DNA of 16,615 nucleotides from a virus (IMGVR_UViG_2751185836_000001); one strand, 5' to 3'; positions 2 to 16,615 are shown, numbered from the stretch's first letter. The notes: a model not told the origin generated them from the sequence alone. Program-made: numbers and translations.

Positions 2-262
2 GAAACCCGAAAAGGATATTTATATAAGCATGAGATGTCACTGGAGCAGCATAAGGAACTGCTGCAGCTTTTGTCCGCACATCCGGGAAAAGTCCTGCTT
101 TCCGGCTATGATAATGAGCTTTACGACAGCCTGCTGCCTGAATGGCACAAAGTACAGAAGGCAACACAAGCGGAATGTGGACTCCGCCGCACGGAGACGC
201 TGTGGATGAACTATATCCCGCCGGCGCACCAGGTTTCGATGGAGGAATATGGCGTATGTTAG
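2..262 (+). CDS. DNA adenine methyltransferase (Dam/D12-class), C-terminal part, 5'-truncated by the window
   Basis: Frame is open from base 2: ETRKGYLYKHEMSLEQHKELLQLLSAHPGKVLLSGYDNELYDSLLPEW...RTETLWMNY, the typical C-terminus of phage Dam-like MTases. The DPPY motif lies outside the window. Confidence 0.72.
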   Translation, partial: ETRKGYLYKHEMSLEQHKELLQLLSAHPGKVLLSGYDNELYDSLLPEWHKVQKATQAECGLRRTETLWMNYIPPAHQVSMEEYGVC

Positions 263-1269
263 GAAAAGAATTGAGAGATTACCGCAAAGAACACGGTTAT
301 CTGCAAAAGGAAATCGCCGAAACGCTTGGCATATCCGCCAGCCTGTTGAGCCGGATAGAAAGGGGCAAGCGGGAGGTCACGGTGGAAGAGGAGAGAAAGA
401 TCCTGGAATTATTCCCGGAGCTTGCCAAAGAAAAACTCCCTGGAAAATACACGGTCTACACTGATGGCGGATGCGGCTTTAATCCGGGCGGTCCCGGCGG
501 GATCGGAGCCGTGATCCTTGACGTGGAGGGAAAAGTGATACAGGAAATATCGAAGGGGTTCCATGCCAGCACCAACAATCGGATGGAGCTCCTGGCAGCT
601 ATCGAGGCCCTCAAGACCATTCCCGCAGGGGCGGAAGTTAAAGTAAAGTCCGACTCCCAGTATCTGGTCCAGACTATGGAAGAAGGATGGAGCCGGAATA
701 AGAACCATGACTTGTGGAAGCAACTGGACGAGGCTCTCCGCGGCAAAAAGGTATCGTTTAAGTGGGTCCGTGGCCACAACGGGAACCAGTGGAACGAGAG
801 ATGTGACGAGCTCGCCACGGCGGGGATCAACAGCAGCGACAAAGAAGAAGACACCGGGTATATTCCCACGAGAAACGCCTCACAGGTAAAGCGAAAACCG
901 TCCACACCTCCTGGCGGGGCCATGGCTGTGTCCTTAGACGTTCCGGAGCTTATGCCGGTTCATCGGGAGGACATCCTTGTCCACGAGAAATGCCGGAAAG
1001 CAATCCGGCGTTTTCAGAAAAGTCGAAGGACCTTTGGAGATTATCTGGATGTAAAGACAGGAGGCCGGGATGGTTGGTCGCTCCTTGGCATAAAGCAGCT
1101 CACCGAGATCATGGGAAGCATGGCATACAGCATAGCGGCAGAATATCTCCATGAGGAAAAGGCCGTCGCCTCCTGTCTGCGTTGGTTCGGCCGTGGGATG
1201 CTGCTTAAGGACAGTATACGAAAGGCGCTCGTGGACATGGAGGTATCGTCTAATTGTTTAAAAAAGTAA
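256..1269 (+). CDS. rnhA: XRE-family HTH fused to ribonuclease HI plus an uncharacterised C-terminal domain
   Basis: GGAGG at 241-245, ATG at 256 overlapping the MTase stop. The N-terminus LRDYRKEHGYLQKEIAETLGISASLLSRIERG is an HTH_3 pattern. RNase HI motifs YTDGG, TNNRMEL, SDSQY, KWVRGH and NERCDELA are intact (D-E-D-H-D). Confidence 0.85.
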   Translation: MLGKELRDYRKEHGYLQKEIAETLGISASLLSRIERGKREVTVEEERKILELFPELAKEKLPGKYTVYTDGGCGFNPGGPGGIGAVILDVEGKVIQEISKGFHASTNNRMELLAAIEALKTIPAGAEVKVKSDSQYLVQTMEEGWSRNKNHDLWKQLDEALRGKKVSFKWVRGHNGNQWNERCDELATAGINSSDKEEDTGYIPTRNASQVKRKPSTPPGGAMAVSLDVPELMPVHREDILVHEKCRKAIRRFQKSRRTFGDYLDVKTGGRDGWSLLGIKQLTEIMGSMAYSIAAEYLHEEKAVASCLRWFGRGMLLKDSIRKALVDMEVSSNCLKK

Positions 1270-4368: not shown

Positions 4369-4410
4369 AAAAAGAGAGCCCCTTCCGGAATTCATGCTCC
4401 GGAGGGGGCT
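4369..4410 (-). terminator. Intrinsic terminator between convergent genes
   Basis: 13-bp stem AGCCCCTTCCGGA (4377-4389)/TCCGGAGGGGGCT (4398-4410) with one G-T pair; U-tract on the minus strand (A run at 4369-4373). Confidence 0.65.
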
Positions 4411-4413
4411 GTT

Positions 4414-5550
4414 CTATTCTCTAAATTCATAACCAAATGATTTCGTATCATAAAGCCGCATCTGTACAGGAGCGAGATAGGAGTGGTAGATGTGGCCGAA
4501 CTGAGGGATCTGAAGAACATCAGCGGCATGATGTAAGTTTAGCAGGAATTCTTCACGGCTGAATGTAGAACCTTTAGAAGTTCCATCTTCCACCATGATA
4601 CAGTTGGGGCTGTCTTCTTCACTAAGTTTTTCATCATGCCTGTAATAGTAAAAATACATCCCTAATTCGGAAGAAAGGATTTCGGCCACGGCACCACCAG
4701 TACCATCGCCATGTTTATCTGTCTCGAAATCCGCAAATACTTCATCAGCATCTTTTCCTTCATCTATGATCTGGAGAAGCATTTTGGAACGGGCTTTGTT
4801 CGTACAGAATGTGCCACGATATTCATTCAAAAAGTCAACAAATCCTGGAGGAGTCTCCGGGTAGTGAAACCCGTACCCGAAAGTTGTTGTAATCACCTGT
4901 TTTTCGTCATCATCCCCAAAGATAGCTTTTAGAAGTCGTTCCTCCATTCTTGTTTTTTCTACCTCTTTCTTACTTCGGATTGTCGTTCCAGGCTCACCAA
5001 AATCCAGGAAGATCAAGTTGCCGTTTTCTGTTCGAGAATAGTAGATGGTTCCCATCGTCGTACACAAATTCTCCCCATCTCCCCAACGATATTCGAAACT
5101 CATTTCCTTTTCTGCCCAACGGTGTCCGTCTTCAGAGCAGGGTTCTTCCTCTTGGAAATCGAATTTTCCGTTTTCTTCCATACACAGGATTTCCATAGCG
5201 TGTAGAGCATCCGCAACAGATTTCCAAGGCTGCGAATAATCTGCTGTAACAAGGTTACTTAGGCCTTCCATAATAGCCGCTTCACAGCGTTTTACACGGT
5301 CAGCAATGGGCTCGATTTCATAGCCGCAAGCTTCCAGAAGCATCCTTTCTGTGATCGTATTCATGTGACTGGCCATATTTCTTAAAATTGCGACAGAGGG
5401 TCGCGATATTTCTTTATTGTTGAGCAATCGGTTGAGATGTTCCTTTGATATGCTGGCCTCTTCTGCAAATGCTTTTTGAGTGCGTGTCCCGATACCACGT
5501 CTTAAGAGCTCTCGGAATTCCTTGTATTCGCCTTTAGTGTCTTTTGCCAT
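4414..5550 (-). CDS. XRE-family HTH protein with a large acidic C-terminal region
   Basis: AGGAGG 8 nt upstream of the ATG at 5550; FRELLRRGIGTRTQKAFAEEASISKEHLNRLLNNKEISRPS is an HTH_3-type pattern; the remaining ~300 aa are unrecognised. Confidence 0.78.
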   Translation of the reverse strand: MAKDTKGEYKEFRELLRRGIGTRTQKAFAEEASISKEHLNRLLNNKEISRPSVAILRNMASHMNTITERMLLEACGYEIEPIADRVKRCEAAIMEGLSNLVTADYSQPWKSVADALHAMEILCMEENGKFDFQEEEPCSEDGHRWAEKEMSFEYRWGDGENLCTTMGTIYYSRTENGNLIFLDFGEPGTTIRSKKEVEKTRMEERLLKAIFGDDDEKQVITTTFGYGFHYPETPPGFVDFLNEYRGTFCTNKARSKMLLQIIDEGKDADEVFADFETDKHGDGTGGAVAEILSSELGMYFYYYRHDEKLSEEDSPNCIMVEDGTSKGSTFSREEFLLNLHHAADVLQIPQFGHIYHSYLAPVQMRLYDTKSFGYEFRE

Positions 5551-5573
5551 GATCATATCCTCCTATAACTTAA

Positions 5574-6767
5574 CTATAAATAGATGCTCTGCTTTTTCAT
5601 TGCCATCTGGATAGTCTCAAAAATACCATTTAGGAGCTGTGGCTCAATTGGTTCTTCCAGGTTTACGTTTCCAATACCGGCAAGGATAGACTCTTCGGCA
5701 AAGTTCAGCATTGGACTGAGAAATTCTTCTGCATATATTGAAAAGTTTTTCTTGATCACTGCCTCTATAAAGGGATGACAAAGAGCCTTTATTTTTTCTT
5801 CGGCCAATTCTACCGGATCACTTTCTGGATCATAAGGTTCATCCGTGCTTTCGTCCCTCTCGCAGTCATCTGCATCATCGGTCACAAGGGGATACAGGAC
5901 ATTGACGGGATCTTCCAATGCTACGGCGTCAATGTATGTACCAACCGGAAGGACCGGTTTCACCTTGGTCGGACATGGGCAGGATACGATCTCGTATAAT
6001 TCCTGTAAGGACTGTGCCGGACACCCGAATGGCGTGATATAAGGGATACCACGTGCTCCATTGTTGATCAAGGTATCTGCGTATTCCTGCAGCATCCTGC
6101 TTTCATTCCTTATGATGACCTCCGGAGCTTTGAGTGCTTTTAACTTGGCCAAGCGGCCTATTCTCAGGATCAAGCGGTTATACAGGTATTCCATCGGGAT
6201 TGGGCTCCAGGCCGGTTTTTTGTTTTTACGTTCTACTTTCTGGTACCGCAGTGAAAGCGGGATGACCGGCAGGCAGTGCAGGATGATATGTTCGTACTCT
6301 GGAGCATGCTCTCTTTTTAAGAGAGCTTCGATTGCCTCCGCTCCGCACAGACAGATAGCACCGGGGTACTCTTGATGGAATATTTCAAAATCCTTTTCTT
6401 CTACAATCTGTTTGTATCTGGCCTCTGTCTCTCCCGGCTCAATAACGACGTGTGCGCCATAATATACAATTTTCTCGATTTCTTTTCTGGGGATGCCAAG
6501 GATGCGGGGCAGGATTGGCCTGCTTCCAAATAGATACTGGATGTTGACGATCGGGATCGGGAGGGAAATGTGTCCCATCAGGGTTTCCTCATCACTCATT
6601 TTCCCGAAGATTTTGGGATCAGTCATAGACCGTTCAACAGGATCTCCCTCCTCACAAGGGGAAGGGAATATGACCTCGCCATTCGAAAACTCCAGGGTCA
6701 TCCCGTCGGTGAGTTCCGTCATTTCTGCCGCCGTCGATACATTTGTATTCATCCATCTCTTATTCAT
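5574..6767 (-). CDS. rpoC: Stand-alone RNA polymerase beta' (RpoC) N-terminal/clamp-like protein, divergent and internally deleted, no catalytic domain
   Basis: Collinear RpoC motifs: FSNGEV..P, KIFG, MGHISLPIP, EKIVYYGAHVVIEPG, GAEAIEALLK, ILHCLPVIPLSLR, LYNRLILRIGRLAKLKALKAPEVIIRNESRMLQEYADTLINNGARG, AQSLQEL. GGAGG 8 nt before ATG 6767. No NADFDGD motif. Confidence 0.85.
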   Translation of the reverse strand: MNKRWMNTNVSTAAEMTELTDGMTLEFSNGEVIFPSPCEEGDPVERSMTDPKIFGKMSDEETLMGHISLPIPIVNIQYLFGSRPILPRILGIPRKEIEKIVYYGAHVVIEPGETEARYKQIVEEKDFEIFHQEYPGAICLCGAEAIEALLKREHAPEYEHIILHCLPVIPLSLRYQKVERKNKKPAWSPIPMEYLYNRLILRIGRLAKLKALKAPEVIIRNESRMLQEYADTLINNGARGIPYITPFGCPAQSLQELYEIVSCPCPTKVKPVLPVGTYIDAVALEDPVNVLYPLVTDDADDCERDESTDEPYDPESDPVELAEEKIKALCHPFIEAVIKKNFSIYAEEFLSPMLNFAEESILAGIGNVNLEEPIEPQLLNGIFETIQMAMKKQSIYL

Positions 6768-6812
6768 CTTTTGCGCCTCCGTAATTGATATGTTATTCAT
6801 CTGGTTGATTTT

Positions 6813-6841
6813 ATTGTAATATATCAACCGAATGATGTCAA
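6813..6841 (-). promoter_or_regulatory. Near-consensus sigmaA promoter for the rpoC-like/XRE operon
   Basis: Minus strand TTGACA (6841-6836), 17 bp, TACAAT (6818-6813). Confidence 0.75.
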
Positions 6842-6869
6842 TATAAAAATGATTTATATGTGGATTTGT

Positions 6870-6883
6870 ATTGATATATCAAT
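6870..6883. promoter_or_regulatory. Perfect 14-bp palindrome, candidate operator
   Basis: ATTGATATATCAAT; degenerate copies lie in the promoter spacer (~6817-6828) and near 6784-6797 and 6894-6903. Confidence 0.5.
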
Positions 6884-6911
6884 TTAGTGCGTTTTGTTAT
6901 CAACCCTATAT

Positions 6912-6937
6912 AAAAAAGACAGACCGTCCGGTCTGCC
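6912..6937 (-). terminator. Intrinsic terminator
   Basis: Minus strand GGCAGACC-GGAC-GGTCTGTC-TTTTTT, just after the stop at 6945. Confidence 0.75.
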
Positions 6938-6944
6938 CTAGTTA

Positions 6945-7178
6945 TTATTCTTCTACTTCCACATGGAGGTAATAGCCCCTGGGGGTGTGCTCAATCTTGC
7001 GGATGACACCCTTCCGGGACAGGATCCGCTCATTCGTGCGATAAATCCCGGACATGGCCACGGATGGGTCCACCAGATAGGTATACCGGCCAGTGCTGGG
7101 CCTCCTTTCACTGATCGTCACTTCCTGGCCCTCCTCAACCAGGCCTTCCCGTTCCATCTTAAATTTCTCTATCCTCAT
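6945..7178 (-). CDS. Small hypothetical protein
   Basis: AGGAGG upstream of ATG 7178 (MRIEKFKMERE...HVEVEE), 77 aa. Confidence 0.72.
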   Translation of the reverse strand: MRIEKFKMEREGLVEEGQEVTISERRPSTGRYTYLVDPSVAMSGIYRTNERILSRKGVIRKIEHTPRGYYLHVEVEE

Positions 7179-7191
7179 AGTGCGCCTCCTC

Positions 7192-7722
7192 TTATATGAT
7201 CTTATGCCTGATGACTGCCTTTTCCCACTTATCATCCGGAAGTTCCATAGCGAAGTCCTCCAGGAGCTTTTGCTTGGTGACCGTGTATTTCATCTGATCC
7301 TGCCTCTCCAGAAGAGTGCGAAGCTCTTTCCAGAAAGAAGGCCGTAGCGACAGGAAACGAACAGCCTGGATGATATTGGTATCAAGGTCCGTGAGCACAA
7401 CGGAAATGCCGGGCGTTTTGGGATGCTCCTTCGGTAGTTCCCCCTGCCGGAAGTGTACTGGGCACTCTGTCATAATGACCCCGCCAAAATCCAGGAGCAG
7501 CACCACGATACCCCGGTATTCATACAGGGCCACCTCGGCCGGCCGACCGGGAAGGAGAGCTGTGATCTCTTCAGGCTTCGGCCCACGCAAATACAGGTTG
7601 GCGATCAGCCCGTTATTTATGCAGTCACAGATGGTCGTTTCCCCCTTCGGCGGAACAAGCTGGTTCGCCCGTCCCCTGACAAAATCGATGTCTTCGTTAT
7701 CTTGCAGCAATTCTGCGCTCAT
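7192..7722 (-). CDS. Hypothetical protein
   Basis: 176 aa ORF with RBS GAGGGGG, in a co-directional minus-strand run. Confidence 0.72.
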   Translation of the reverse strand: MSAELLQDNEDIDFVRGRANQLVPPKGETTICDCINNGLIANLYLRGPKPEEITALLPGRPAEVALYEYRGIVVLLLDFGGVIMTECPVHFRQGELPKEHPKTPGISVVLTDLDTNIIQAVRFLSLRPSFWKELRTLLERQDQMKYTVTKQKLLEDFAMELPDDKWEKAVIRHKII

Positions 7723-7876
7723 CAGTTTCCCCCTCTTTTTTAATGATCTCCGTTATCTCCCGGACCGGCAGCAAATAGATCCGGGACAATTCCCTTTTCG
7801 TGCGGCCAGCCCTGAAATCTCTTACGATATCAGCAGAAGACCAGGCTTCTTTGCTTGGTTCGTTCATAAAGTCCAT
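7697..7876 (-). CDS. 59-aa putative small HTH protein (below the ORF-track cut-off)
   Basis: My translation: MDFMNEPSKEAWSSADIVRDFRAGRTKRELSRIYLLPVREITEIIKKEGETDERRIAAR*. RBS GAGGGGG; it overlaps both neighbours and fills the gap between them. IVRDFRAGRTKRELSRIY resembles a Mor-type HTH. Confidence 0.55.
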   Translation of the reverse strand: MDFMNEPSKEAWSSADIVRDFRAGRTKRELSRIYLLPVREITEIIKKEGETDERRIAAR

Positions 7877-8172
7877 TCGGTGTCCCCCTCATTATATTTT
7901 TTCTTCAATATCCAGTATCGATAAAACCAGTCGTTCTGTATAAATACGACCTCATTACCGTTATCCACGATATCTTCTTCCGGGTGGATCTGGTCATCTT
8001 TCACGGCCTGCCAGGATTGCGTCAGAAATTGGTAACGCTCATCTGCTTCCACTTCCTTAATATCCGTATACCCGCGGATGGGTGTGTGCCACCGCATAAG
8101 CCCCCGCCGGGCCGCGTCCATAATATCTTTCCTGTGAGCCGCATACGCCTCACAGATTTCTTTTTTTCTCAT
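7864..8172 (-). CDS. Hypothetical protein
   Basis: Start taken at MRKKEICEAY (GGAAGG upstream); first gene of the minus-strand run. Confidence 0.68.
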   Translation of the reverse strand: MRKKEICEAYAAHRKDIMDAARRGLMRWHTPIRGYTDIKEVEADERYQFLTQSWQAVKDDQIHPEEDIVDNGNEVVFIQNDWFYRYWILKKKYNEGDTEWTL

Positions 8173-8262
8173 ATAAAATCCCTTCCGTTTATAAGTGACA
8201 ACATCCATTATAGCGAACAATCGTTCTTTTTTCCACTGTATTCTCAAATTGTTTCCACAGCC

Positions 8263-9188: not shown

Positions 9189-10603
9189 ATGAGTAATACT
9201 GTCATCATCACAAGGAAATATATTCTTATTCCCGAAAAATGCAATCAAAAGATATGGAAGAAGAAGGTCAGGGATTTCCTGGCAAGCGAGATCCTCCGCA
9301 TTAATGAACTGATCTCACAAAAGGGTAATAAACAGGCCTGGAAGGAGAAGCTCAAGGCCAAAACAGAGCAGTATGAAGCTTATCTCCAGGAGTATGATGA
9401 AACAGACGTGTTCCCCGTGAAAGCTTATACGGATTACACATACAGCCTGATACGTACCGCGATGGAGGACGAGGCCAGGCGGAAGAACTACATCATGACC
9501 TGGATCTATTCCGAGATGATTGCGAATGGCGTGCAGTATATGGACTCTCTTCTCGACAAGTACAAATTCATCACTGAAACGATCAAGCCGGCTTACCGGG
9601 TGAAAGGCAGCAGCAAAGGCAGCCTTTTTGATGACGTGGAGATCAACAATATCCTTGGCGGCTATGGGAACGGATGGAACCAGGAGTTGACAGCAAAGGT
9701 TAAGGATCTGGTCAAAAACGGGTTGCTCGAAGGAAAAGTCTCCCTGGTAAACTATAAGATAGACTCCCCGTTTACCGTTCCGAAATCAACCATGCGGCTC
9801 ACGCATGACTATAGAACCTATGAGGAGTTATGTGAGCATATACATAAAAAGGACTGCAACTTATACCTGGATTACGGGTCAAAAGGCACACCAACAATAG
9901 CTAGGTTCCGGCTTGAACTGGGGACGGCCAAAAACAAAAAGATATTAAAGACGGAGCTACTCAGGCTGTACTCCGGTGAACACAAGTTATGCGGAAGCAA
10001 GATCGGTATAGAAGGAAACAAGATTGTCCTCTACATGCAATGGAGATCCCGAAAAAGGAAATCCAGTTGGACGAAAATGTCATCTGCGGTGTGGCGCTTG
10101 GTATGAACATCCCCGCGGTATGCGCACTCAATTCTTCCGATGAGAGGAGTATGATCGGATGCGCTGACGATTTTCTCCGTATCCGCGTGCAGATGCAGGA
10201 GCAGAGGAGACGCCTTCAGAGGGCTCTAAAGAGCACATCCGGCGGTCATGGACGCAAGAAAAAGCTGGCAGGCCTGGAACGGCTCAAGAAGCGGGAACAT
10301 AATTTCGTCAACACATACTGTCATTTCATCAGCAAGAGCGTGGTAGATTTTGCCGTAAAGAACAAGGCGAAATATATCTACCTCCAGGATCTGGAAGGCT
10401 ATGACACCAATAAGTTTGTCCTGCGAAATTGGAGCTACTATAAGCTCCAGGAGGATATCACTTACAAAGCGGAGCGCTACGGTATCATAGTACAGAAAGT
10501 AAAGGCTGCTCCTGTCAAAGAAGTAAAAGATCTGGATTATGAAGCTCTTATTAAAGTCGATTACGAAACTGCCAGAGGTATCGCCCTTACAAATGCAGCA
10601 TAA
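9189..10603 (+). pseudogene. Cas12f/TnpB-like protein, predicted nuclease-dead, split by one frameshift at ~10038 (~471 aa if joined)
   Basis: ORF 9189-10106 ends ...KIVLYM and continues in another frame as MEIPKKEIQLDENVICGVALG...GGHGRKKKL...HFISKSVVDFA...YIYLQDL...LRNWSYYKLQ..ITYKAE.YGI...VDYETARGIA. These are Cas12f-type WED/RuvC motifs. Confidence 0.85.
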
Positions 10604-11002: not shown

Positions 11003-11371
11003 ATGACCATCAAAGATTTTAACCCGGGACAGAAAATTTATGTATTATATATGAAAAAAGGATATAACGCAGCGCCGGAGCTCTTCGAGAGAAAAGTGGT
11101 AAAGGTCGGCCGCAAATACATCACGGACGACAGGGGCTGCCGATTTTATGAGTCAGATATAATTTTGTCATCAGACAGGCGCACACATGTCTTCTTAGAA
11201 GACCGTGAGTTCGGTGAGAAGGGATTTCTGTTTGCGACCAAAGAGGAAGCGGACTCCTGGGTTGAACTGGACGAGCTGGAGAAATGGTTGGCAACGATCC
11301 GTTGCAATAACCATCCGTATACGGTCGAGCAGTTGCGAAGAGTGAAGGAAATCCTGGAACCGGATGTATAA
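11003..11371 (+). CDS. Hypothetical phage-type protein
   Basis: RBS GGAGGG; DFNPGQKIYV...VVKVGRKYIT is a pattern common in Firmicute phage small proteins. Confidence 0.72.
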   Translation: MTIKDFNPGQKIYVLYMKKGYNAAPELFERKVVKVGRKYITDDRGCRFYESDIILSSDRRTHVFLEDREFGEKGFLFATKEEADSWVELDELEKWLATIRCNNHPYTVEQLRRVKEILEPDV

Positions 11372-11981: not shown

Positions 11982-12134
11982 GTTAATCTGAACTATTCCG
12001 GATATCCTCCGGGTAAAATCGTTCCAACGTACCATCTCCTTGCAAACATTATTTTAGATAATATGGTAATTTTTTTAATACCAGCTTTTCGCATATTTCT
12101 TTTGAAAAAAGCTTTCATAAGAGGAGGAATGAAC

Positions 12135-13028
12135 ATGAAACTTTATTTTGAAGACTTTTGCATTGAAGCCGTTAATTTGCGTGAAATCGCAAAAGCTATT
12201 TGTGAACGGATCACTGTCCCGGATGACATCCCGGAGGGGACACCAGACGAGATAGAGTATGTGCTGGAAGTCGCCGACCATATTTTAGGAAAAAACCGCA
12301 CCATCCTTTACAAAAACGGTGAGCAGCTCATGGAAATGACAAAGGCTGACCTCGGAGATTTGCTCTATTATAGCACCAACCATGGGTATGAGACCCCGGA
12401 TGTGCGTTTCTTTAACGAGTCGGAGGGCAATGAGACCGGAAATTCTTTTTGTCAGATCCTGCTCCTCTACATCGAGGTCCATTACTGGGATATGATGAAA
12501 GAGGGCATAGAAAAGAAAGGCTTCAGTGTAGACCTGGTGCCTGCTGCTGAAGGAGGAGATTTTACGGCTCTGGAAGAGAAAATCTTCACCTCTTCAAATA
12601 ACGCCGTCTACATCTGCTCCCCGCTACGAGGACAGACTCCAGAAGAGACCTATCAGAATATGCTGGCAGCCCGCAAGTATATGTTGGCAGCATACCGTTT
12701 GACAGGTGATCCGGCGGTAGCACCACACGCATACCTGCCTGTTGTTCTGGACGATATGGTTCCAGAAGAGCGGGAATATGGCCTGCTGGCAGGCAAAAAA
12801 CTCCTGTACCGCTGCAAAAAGCTTTTTGTGTGTGGCGACAGGATCTCGGAAGGCATGAAGGGTGAAATCCTGGAAGCGGCGCTTCTGGGTAAACCGATCG
12901 TGACTTTTGACAGGAACATGTTCTGCCGGGTCGCTAACTTGATCTGCGCCGACGACTCTCTTGGCTGTGGTGGCGGTGTGTGCCTGATGCGGGGCTATGA
13001 TGAGCTGGCCACGCCGGCAGCTAAATAG
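12135..13028 (+). CDS. Two-domain protein: unknown N-terminus plus DUF4406/nucleoside 2-deoxyribosyltransferase-like C-terminal domain
   Basis: GAGGAGG 7 nt before ATG 12135; VYICSPLRG...N...ARKY...APHAYLP..LDD..PEER..GL..G..LL..C..L.VCGDRISEGMKGEI..A...GKPI. Confidence 0.75.
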   Translation: MKLYFEDFCIEAVNLREIAKAICERITVPDDIPEGTPDEIEYVLEVADHILGKNRTILYKNGEQLMEMTKADLGDLLYYSTNHGYETPDVRFFNESEGNETGNSFCQILLLYIEVHYWDMMKEGIEKKGFSVDLVPAAEGGDFTALEEKIFTSSNNAVYICSPLRGQTPEETYQNMLAARKYMLAAYRLTGDPAVAPHAYLPVVLDDMVPEEREYGLLAGKKLLYRCKKLFVCGDRISEGMKGEILEAALLGKPIVTFDRNMFCRVANLICADDSLGCGGGVCLMRGYDELATPAAK

Positions 13029-15310: not shown

Positions 15311-16615
15311 ATGAATATGGCTGATTTTGAAAATGATGAAATCTTGAAGTATGCGATTGAGCATGATATGATTGATATGTCATATATGCAACAGCAAATA
15401 GAAATGAATAAGCGTCAAGAGTTATTGGAAAAGCATCCTTATTCAATTTGGGAAGGAAAAGATGGGAATTGGTATACTCATTTGCCAGATGAAAAAAAAG
15501 GACGCATTTTACGAAAACGGAAAACACAAGATGCGATTGAAAAGGTTGTCTGTGACTATTGGAAAAATACGGAGGTGAAGAAAGAAAAAGAAGTATTTTC
15601 AGGTATGACTTTACTGGAATTATTTCCTAAATGGTTACGTTTTAAAGCAGCAAGGACAAATTCAACTTCTTATATAAAGAGAATTACGGCTGATTGGAGT
15701 AGATTTTATATAAATAATGAGATAATCAATAAAAGGATACAGTCGTTGAATAAGATTTATTTGGATACATGGGCGCATACTATGATAAAAGAATACTCAT
15801 TAACGAAAAAATCTTATTATAATATGTCCATAATCTTACGACAGTGCTTGGATTATGCTGTAGAATGTGGTGCGTTAGAAAAAAATGTATTCCGGGAAGT
15901 TGTGATAAATAAAAAGCTGTTTGTACGGAAAAAGAAACCAGATGCATCAACTCAGGTATACACTACATCCGAAACACCAAAAATCATTAATGAAATGATA
16001 AGACGGTATCGTAACAATCCACGAAACACAGCTCCATTGGCTGTAATTCTTTGTTTTGAAACCGGAGTAAGAATAGGTGAGTTGGTCTGCATCAAGATGT
16101 CGGATATACATGGAAATTACATTCGGGTTCAAAGGCAAGAAGTGAGAGATTTTGCATATGTATCGGAAACGCAAATGACGTTTAATGGCTTCCGTGTTGT
16201 TGAGTATACAAAGTCAAGTGATGAATACAGAGACGTTTATTTAACGGAAACAGCCAAATATATTATCAATTTCGTTCAACAAGTTAATGAACTATACGGA
16301 AATAAATATGATGATTATTTGTTTGTCTTTGGGGAAAAGAGAATAAATCATTATGGAATACAAACGCAAATATTGCGTGGATGTAAACATATTATGATCC
16401 CAACAAAGACAGCGCATAAAATCCGAAAAACATACATTTCTGCTTTGATTGATGCCGGAGTAAATATTGATGAAGTAAGGCGCGTTGCAGGGCATGCAGA
16501 TGAAAGAACAACTTATGAAAATTATTGCTTCAATAGAGAGACAGAAGAAGAAACAAACGAAAAGATAGAAAAAGCGCTTAATAATAAATTGGTAACCAAA
16601 AGTAACCAATTTTAG
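15311..16615 (+). CDS. int: Tyrosine recombinase / phage-type integrase
   Basis: ETGVRIGEL (R), EYTK (K), HKIRKTY (HxxR), AGHADERTTYENY (H...Y); N-terminal arm-binding-like region and SAM-like core-binding region; stop TAG at 16613-16615. Confidence 0.92.
   Translation: MNMADFENDEILKYAIEHDMIDMSYMQQQIEMNKRQELLEKHPYSIWEGKDGNWYTHLPDEKKGRILRKRKTQDAIEKVVCDYWKNTEVKKEKEVFSGMTLLELFPKWLRFKAARTNSTSYIKRITADWSRFYINNEIINKRIQSLNKIYLDTWAHTMIKEYSLTKKSYYNMSIILRQCLDYAVECGALEKNVFREVVINKKLFVRKKKPDASTQVYTTSETPKIINEMIRRYRNNPRNTAPLAVILCFETGVRIGELVCIKMSDIHGNYIRVQRQEVRDFAYVSETQMTFNGFRVVEYTKSSDEYRDVYLTETAKYIINFVQQVNELYGNKYDDYLFVFGEKRINHYGIQTQILRGCKHIMIPTKTAHKIRKTYISALIDAGVNIDEVRRVAGHADERTTYENYCFNRETEEETNEKIEKALNNKLVTKSNQF

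Follow-up and report, generated by a model that had tools for sequence, protein, structure and literature searches.

The question raised by the 16,615-nt viral stretch IMGVR_UViG_2751185836_000001, called the window here when its whole length is meant, is why an element should carry the N-terminal clamp of the RNA polymerase beta' subunit as a gene of its own. The gene encodes a stand-alone clamp protein of 397 amino acids (aa), P0001, on the minus strand (coding sequence 6767..5574, with ATG at 6767 and TAG at 5576-5574), and its ribosome-binding site, GGAGG, lies at 6776..6780 on the same strand, 8 nt ahead of the ATG; an intact open reading frame (ORF) of this length with its own ribosome-binding site had been reported in an earlier reading of the sequence alone, the original prediction, and is upheld, on the minus strand. 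P0001 is a paralog of the beta' clamp that is carried by the element, is highly derived and non-catalytic, and has an obligate partner; the best explanation of its setting is that it is encoded by the first gene of a conserved two-gene module on integrative mobile elements of gut Clostridia. The obligate partner, a protein with an XRE-type helix-turn-helix (HTH), and the apparently autoregulated operon were both missing from the original prediction, and they recast what had been pictured as a free-standing decoy as a module of two proteins. The reading favoured here, with a probability of roughly 0.4, is that P0001 would mimic the clamp, be kept under tight autorepression and titrate sigma or NusG-type factors.

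The relationship to beta' is observed at the level of sequence. P0001 matched PF04997 (RNA_pol_Rpb1_1), its sole Pfam match, at 56 bits against a cut-off of 39.7, and its closest solved relatives were the beta' subunits of C. difficile (7l7b_D, E 9e-28) and C. thermocellum (approximately E 1e-27), in agreement with the RpoC N-terminal homology originally proposed. Against the rpoC equivalog model of NCBIfam, TIGR02386, it reached 100.6 bits, far short of the 963.5-bit cut-off expected of the whole protein, and no specific NCBIfam family was found for it. Solved beta' chains aligned to P0001 in two stretches separated by a gap on the beta' side, and with E. coli rpoC as the reference for residue equivalences, P0001 residues 64-257 correspond to E. 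coli beta' 102-330. Two deletions set the protein apart. Only 8 residues separate the motifs IFG (53-55) and MGHI (64-67) in P0001, compared with 38 in E. coli, so that the four zinc cysteines are gone, as the original prediction had claimed; the corresponding Cys4 columns (E. coli C70, C72, C85 and C88) are gaps in 82/82 members of the family alignment, which comprises these 82 members, 45 real beta' N-termini and E. coli. The helical insert was likewise correctly described as removed: P0001 lacks E. coli 197-233 in frame, and the core of that stretch, 202-231, is gapped in all 82 members. Sequence homology ends at approximately residue 262-267 of P0001 (E. coli 335-342), after the rudder as foreseen, and neither PF00623, the NADFDGD motif nor any later beta' domain was found in P0001 by Pfam search or in its translation. 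P0001 is a true homolog of the beta' N-terminal clamp without the catalytic part.

The predicted fold extends this relationship. The AlphaFold2 model, built from an 82-sequence alignment, had a mean predicted local distance difference test score (pLDDT) of 95 and a predicted template modelling score (pTM) of 0.92, and Foldseek searches with it returned beta' chains at E 1e-15. Superposition with VIA-align placed model residues 18-267 on E. coli beta' 24-342 (Z 24-26, root-mean-square deviation (rmsd) 2.5-2.8 A, approximately 245 residues), and several of its rows reached as far as model residue 392 against E. coli beta' 1329 or Thermus 1444, indicating that the last helix of P0001 occupies the place of the C-terminal clamp helix of beta'. 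The family-specific C-terminal part, residues 268-397 (5577..5966, minus), was delimited from pLDDT, charge and the superposition rows. This tail had been described as novel and acidic, and its net acidity stands (isoelectric point (pI) 4.1-4.6), but in the model it is not a loose tail: a low-confidence, strongly acidic linker at residues ~295-317 is followed by three long helices at 318-393 with pLDDT > 95. As modelled, the 'acidic tail' is mostly structured, forming a helical cap that replaces the beta' C-terminal clamp helix, and from the superposition ranges we read the clamp protein as a closed, probably self-sufficient clamp domain. Descent of the tail from beta' 370-420 was considered and is not supported (profile-profile probability 1.7%). 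At the other end of the protein, residues 1-17 (6717-6767, minus) fall outside the beta' superposition, yet few parts of the family are as strongly conserved.

Searches of public sequence showed that P0001 is not an isolated case. A word-indexed search recovered approximately 30 full-length relatives of 391-410 aa at 34-60% identity, each carrying PF04997 alone, and exhaustive searching of 1.84 billion cluster representatives with HMMER returned 63 proteins at E < 1e-30, with approximately 75 representatives (50% identity clusters) of 370-450 aa aligning in one stretch from residue 1-5 onwards; family members ranked ahead of true beta' chains, which appeared near E 1e-27. Two analyses proposed with the original prediction, a phylogeny against RpoC and the ratio of nonsynonymous to synonymous substitution rates (dN/dS) among homologs, pointed the same way. 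In the maximum-likelihood tree the clamp family and real beta' were split on a single branch with 100% support in the Shimodaira-Hasegawa-like approximate likelihood ratio test (SH-aLRT), and dN/dS, calculated by the NG86 method for the one sequence pair of P0001 and the 94%-identical P0220 (locus L100), was 0.18 overall; residues 1-63 gave 0.085, the clamp helices 0.13 and the tail 0.20. Full-length homologs with the same two deletions, a dN/dS of 0.18 and a compact, confidently predicted fold together rule out a pseudogene, one-off or otherwise, and bear out the earlier argument for selection as opposed to decay. The exact P0001 sequence is indexed in 212 blocks of public assemblies, among them a 3.5-Mb chromosome, and a close variant in Lachnoclostridium phocaeense carries no name beyond 'hypothetical protein'. 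Hundreds of public gut assemblies contain the exact protein under that annotation, so it appears to represent a common function of the gut microbiome that is currently unnamed.

Other collections delimit where the family occurs. The plasmid and phage collections searched contained no family member, only true rpoC in misfiled records, and when 185,579 species genomes were scanned with that of the family, the 80 loci listed were ordinary rpoC throughout, matching residues 64-257 only; these 80 loci were reused as the comparison set of real beta'. No clamp-family match was found in 164 genomes of one bacterial family, which may not be the family of the host. Within the comparison set one further position stands out: Asn75 of P0001 (6543-6545, minus) is invariant in 82/82 members of the clamp family, and every real beta' has His there (E. 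coli H113).

Conservation of beta' sequence within the protein is unevenly distributed and is greatest in the clamp helices, residues 191-240 (6048..6197, minus), equivalent to E. coli 264-313 and identified from both model and alignments. In the model, the two helices span residues 191-211 and 216-235 and are of the same length as in beta'. The original prediction had aligned the segment 6048-6194 without gaps to E. coli 268-313; the gapless alignment holds, but residues 192-240 encoded there correspond to E. coli 265-313. The individual residues were correctly identified, with R202, R220 and E222 of P0001 equivalent to E. coli R275, R293 and E295, RMLQE kept, and Y229 in the place of A302. 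When regions were scored by the mean fraction of family members that have the beta' consensus residue, clamp helix 2 scored 0.65, clamp helix 1 0.43, the PVxP..R segment 0.42, the core strands approximately 0.3, the rudder 0.25 and the lid 0.07, and the lid and rudder sequences have diverged from beta'. In helix 1 the conserved positions share one face (L268, R271, R275, R278, R/K281-L282 and L285, in E. coli numbering), and near-invariant positions in helix 2 are N294, E295, R297, Q300, D304 and N309. Exposed residues are kept at R271 in 54 of the 82 members, R275 in 56, R278 in 72, R/K281 in 64, E295 in 74, R297 in 67 and Q300 in 79. The segment has a pI of 9.7, as against 4.8 for the whole protein.

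The second gene of the module is constantly associated with the first. Eight contexts were compared, consisting of the window's own element (six assemblies), the 94% variant, three relatives at 41-60% identity and three at approximately 29-34%, and in 8/8 of them a homolog of an XRE-HTH protein of 375-410 aa lies downstream of the clamp gene with a gap of -4 to 74 nt. A hidden Markov model of the window's partner family matched 7/7 of the downstream proteins scored (E 1e-53 to 1e-167), and conservation within that family spans the whole protein. In the window the partner has 378 aa (4414..5550, minus; ATG 5550 is the most likely start and ATG 5556 the alternative) and its own ribosome-binding site, AGGAGG, at 5559..5564 (minus), 9 nt past the clamp stop codon and 8 nt before ATG 5550. 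Its domain order is an XRE-type HTH, an NTF2-like middle domain and an alpha/beta domain without match in whole-model searches. The modelled N-terminus superposed best on the N-terminal domain of CapH (Z 9.1, rmsd 1.8 A, 64 residues, 30% identity), followed by DdrO and ImmR (Z 7.5-9.1 overall), and scored 20.5 bits against Pfam HTH_3, just below the cut-off of 23; by its predicted fold it is a lambda-repressor-type HTH of the XRE family.

Control elements around the two genes are consistent with a self-regulated operon. A sigma-A-type promoter, TTGACA-17-TACAAT, with 11/12 consensus matches, lies at 6813..6841 (minus), and the equivalent promoters of the relatives L001 and L005 and of L100, the 94% variant, lie equally far from the start codon. 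Across this promoter, at 6785..6903 (unstranded), is a putative operator array of six TTGAT/ATCAA half-sites, which includes the 12-bp palindrome TTGATATATCAA at 6871-6882; six half-sites fall within these 119 bp, compared with 51 in the whole 16.6-kb window, and the palindrome occurs once in the window. In L001 and L005 (49-60% protein identity) a TTGAT-N3-ATCAA palindrome is found in the same place, at -116 to -103, with more half-sites over the -35 element, the spacer and the leader, and in L100 the half-sites are kept while the DNA between them differs. It is therefore most likely, as we infer from the pattern of these sites, that the partner represses the operon's own promoter through them. 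An intrinsic terminator with a 10-pair stem and T run at 6916..6939 (minus) insulates the operon from four small upstream genes, and a hairpin and T run at 4377..4410 (minus) ends the operon and is shared with a convergent gene.

The genes around the pair differ from context to context. Neighbours in the window include a tyrosine integrase, a D12 methyltransferase, an HTH-RNase H fusion and TnpB relics. In one relative the pair is accompanied by a Mob_Pre relaxase, a DNA methylase and SIR2, in another (L001) by pilus-type genes. There is a TraG/VirB4-like ATPase in one of the contexts at approximately 29-34% identity, and a Y-family polymerase and a sortase in the 94% variant. These contexts fit accessory regions in elements that are integrative and in part conjugative or mobilisable. 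No member of the Rpb1_2-5 or Rpb2 families was present among the called genes of the eight contexts, up to 10 kb either side and less at contig ends, and the rest of a split RNA polymerase, which would have made P0001 a subunit, is accordingly absent from these surroundings (~8-10 kb). In L001 (5165-7381, minus) a 738-aa protein with an N-terminus like that of extracytoplasmic function (ECF) sigma factors (Sigma70_r2, r4_2) and a long C-terminal extension is encoded 2.6 kb from the operon; as a conserved partner this ECF-like sigma fusion is ruled out, as L005 has no homolog in the corresponding position.

No enzymatic domain is present in either protein; the module must therefore act through binding, and the most beta'-like surface of P0001 suggests to what. 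Acidic residues of sigma-2-like domains dock on the basic groove of the clamp helices (PMC12276001), and the substitutions R275Q, E295K and A302D are reported to impair holoenzyme formation (PMC8321222). The retention in P0001 of these helices, with their exposed arginine face and E295, plausibly counts in favour of a sigma or NusG decoy. A possible course of events is that a promoter free of repressor, on entry into a new cell or on induction, would give a burst of the clamp copy, which would display the basic groove of its clamp helices and capture a factor that docks there on RNA polymerase, either sigma region 2 or the NGN domain of a NusG-family protein. The captured factor would be titrated away from the real polymerase, and the partner, which may also bind the clamp copy, would then shut the operon down. 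The ligand of the clamp helices, operator binding by the partner and the timing of expression are all presumptive steps in this scheme. A more specific version, which is held tentatively, is that the host clamp has been turned into a soluble decoy whose repressor-limited burst would sequester a sigma factor or a NusG paralog, or would form a dead 'pseudo-holoenzyme' with sigma on promoters.

Further observations bear on clamp mimicry, several of them against it. Of the three sigma-contact residues known by mutation (R275, E295 and A302; PMC8321222), P0001 keeps two, and the family keeps them in 56/82, 74/82 and 10/82 members, respectively; A302, invariant in the real beta' set, is Tyr in 32/82 members of the clamp family, Thr in 11/82 and Ala in 10/82, and R293, although present in P0001, is not conserved across the family. 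The variability at these two positions makes a canonical fit to the housekeeping sigma doubtful. Q300, D304, N309, G310 and the leucines, though conserved, may serve folding alone. Across the eight contexts the pair is accompanied by no conserved sigma or NusG gene. Further, the conserved first 17 residues and Asn75 have no place in the clamp-mimic model, nor do the two C-terminal domains of the partner, and none of the competing explanations accommodates them either.

The best surviving of these explanations, though an unlikely one, is that the genes form an addiction or abortive-infection-type pair, in which the clamp copy would be a putative growth-arresting toxin that poisons transcription and the XRE partner both its antidote and an autorepressor; this overlaps with clamp mimicry in mechanism and differs from it in purpose, which would be element maintenance or defence. 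The compact two-gene operon with its gaps of -4 to 74 nt, the strong promoter buried in palindromic putative operators, the movement of the genes as a unit between unrelated neighbourhoods and the resemblance of the XRE-HTH partner to HigA-type antitoxins, shared with many other XRE proteins, would all be expected of such a pair. However, both proteins are far above the usual type II sizes, and neither gave a match to a Pfam toxin family or a PADLOC match beyond generic HTH.

Rather less probable is a protective decoy or sensor, whereby the clamp copy would absorb or detect proteins with which phages or rival elements attack the clamp of the host, and the partner would relay or limit the response. 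The phage proteins gp79 and gp36 of phiEco32 are known to bind on or beside the clamp (PMC12276001), and the pattern of conservation in P0001, with the clamp surface kept and the nucleic-acid-contacting loops drifted, is compatible with such a role, as are some neighbours of defence or conflict type (SIR2, an RNase A-like toxin and DNA methylases). No effector domain is encoded by the pair, however, no consistent defence-island context was seen, and the family is absent from the PADLOC models.

To be doubted to the same degree is a regulator internal to the element, for which the clamp fold would be a scaffold that binds the XRE partner only, as co-repressor or anti-repressor, and makes no contact with host factors. 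Strict pairing and the full-length conservation of both families speak for this arrangement, and so does the strong conservation of the first 17 residues, which lie outside the beta' superposition within a segment (residues 1-63) with a dN/dS of 0.085. It leaves unexplained, however, why the exposed arginine and glutamate residues of the sigma-binding face are kept. Furthermore, the sole full palindromic operator of the window is at the operon's own promoter, indicating no evident regulon, and no fused partner-clamp protein was found among the longer proteins searched, although this is weak evidence.

Finally, an assembly poison that binds beta in place of the beta' N-terminus, or a spare subunit as one piece of an element-encoded split polymerase, is highly improbable: P0001 does originate in the region of beta' that builds the clamp jointly with beta, and natural beta' splits exist, with cyanobacterial gamma among the matches, but P0001 is without a catalytic motif or PF00623, reaches 100 bits against the 963-bit rpoC equivalog cut-off, has no other polymerase subunit gene beside it in the eight contexts, and carries a helical cap at the position of the beta' C-terminal clamp helix, so that the domain looks closed on itself.

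Clamp mimicry of the kind favoured above would have consequences beyond this locus. The clamp helices of beta' are a hub for the docking of sigma and NusG-type factors, and mimicry of that docking site is performed by no described protein; nor was any description of a stand-alone beta' clamp protein found in the literature searched, which agrees with the original statement that no mobile-element protein of this kind had been described. A natural, soluble and well-folded clamp under selection in many elements would be a new route for mobile DNA to reprogram host transcription, and the decoy or pseudo-holoenzyme, if true, would establish a structurally novel class of anti-sigma or transcription-hijacking factors whose source is the target enzyme. 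In practical terms the protein would provide structural and biochemical studies of how sigma and NusG dock in Firmicutes with a ready-made minimal clamp, and could possibly serve to titrate these factors in cells.

The remaining features of the window were annotated alongside the operon. The four small upstream genes (127, 59, 176 and 77-96 aa; 6945-8247, minus) are on the same strand, with the terminator between them and the clamp operon; the same four precede the operon in L100, behind the Y-family polymerase gene, and are absent from the more distant contexts, which places them outside the conserved module. The 176-aa protein gave a faint match to a PHROG of unknown function, the sole match among the four. 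At 142-1269 (plus) is a gene for an XRE-type HTH fused to RNase H (PF00075, E 8e-32) and followed by approximately 140 residues without match; in the source chromosome (L090) a D12-class adenine methyltransferase gene lies directly 5' of it with an overlap of a few bases. A TnpB/Cas12f-like gene at 9189-10603 (plus) is split into overlapping ORFs of 305 and 204 aa with weak OrfB_IS605 and TNB Pfam matches, and other assemblies of the window's element (L091-L095) have a single 471-aa ORF at this position. Between this relic and the integrase are genes for a Phage_ProQ_C-like protein (11003-11371, plus; E 2e-9) and a DUF7768 protein (12132-13028, plus; E 1e-24). The tyrosine integrase gene (PF00589) at 15311-16615 (plus) runs off the end of the window, and G+C drops from approximately 0.45 to 0.34 from ~14500 on; integrase and G+C drop together probably mark one element boundary.

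Among known systems, the cyanobacterial and plastid gamma subunit (RpoC1, the N-terminal half of beta') is a natural precedent for a stand-alone beta' N-terminal protein, and 8syi_D (E 5e-25) was among the best matches of P0001; however, gamma has approximately 620 aa, keeps the zinc domain and NADFDGD, and is an essential core subunit. Large-subunit homologs on mobile elements are also familiar from the split non-canonical polymerases of jumbo phages and from YonO of SPbeta, which keep the catalytic double-psi beta-barrel and make RNA, whereas P0001 is without that barrel and has no companion subunits nearby. In its organization the module resembles the XRE-controlled, autorepressed operons of C-protein restriction systems, HigBA-type pairs and ImmR/CapH/DdrO-type regulators, with an XRE protein in an apparently self-repressed operon and palindromes over the promoter; its layout would also fit a type II toxin-antitoxin system, with adjacent genes in an operon that its DNA-binding protein would repress through the putative operators. 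It differs from the XRE-controlled operons in that the partner, at 378 aa, has two extra domains, and no protease, nuclease or known toxin is encoded alongside.

A near likeness is that to the beta' N-terminal clamp itself (RpoC ~1-342), fragments of which, 1-314 and 262-309, have been made in the laboratory (Young, Gross and co-workers, as cited in PMC8321222). P0001 has the same fold (Z ~25 over 245 residues), with clamp helices equal in length and the equivalents of R275, R278, E295, R297 and Q300 kept, but it is a separate gene on a mobile element, is without the zinc domain, the E. coli 197-233 hairpin and the catalytic domains, and has a diverged lid and rudder, its own helical cap, a conserved 17-residue N-terminus and a replacement of A302. 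In proposed outcome the likeness is to anti-sigma factors: class I anti-sigma factors cover sigma 2.1/2.2, the surface that binds the clamp helices, so that with this surface occupied sigma does not join core (PMC7406223). Fold and origin are unrelated; P0001, a putative sigma binder, would be a copy of the docking site on the polymerase itself.

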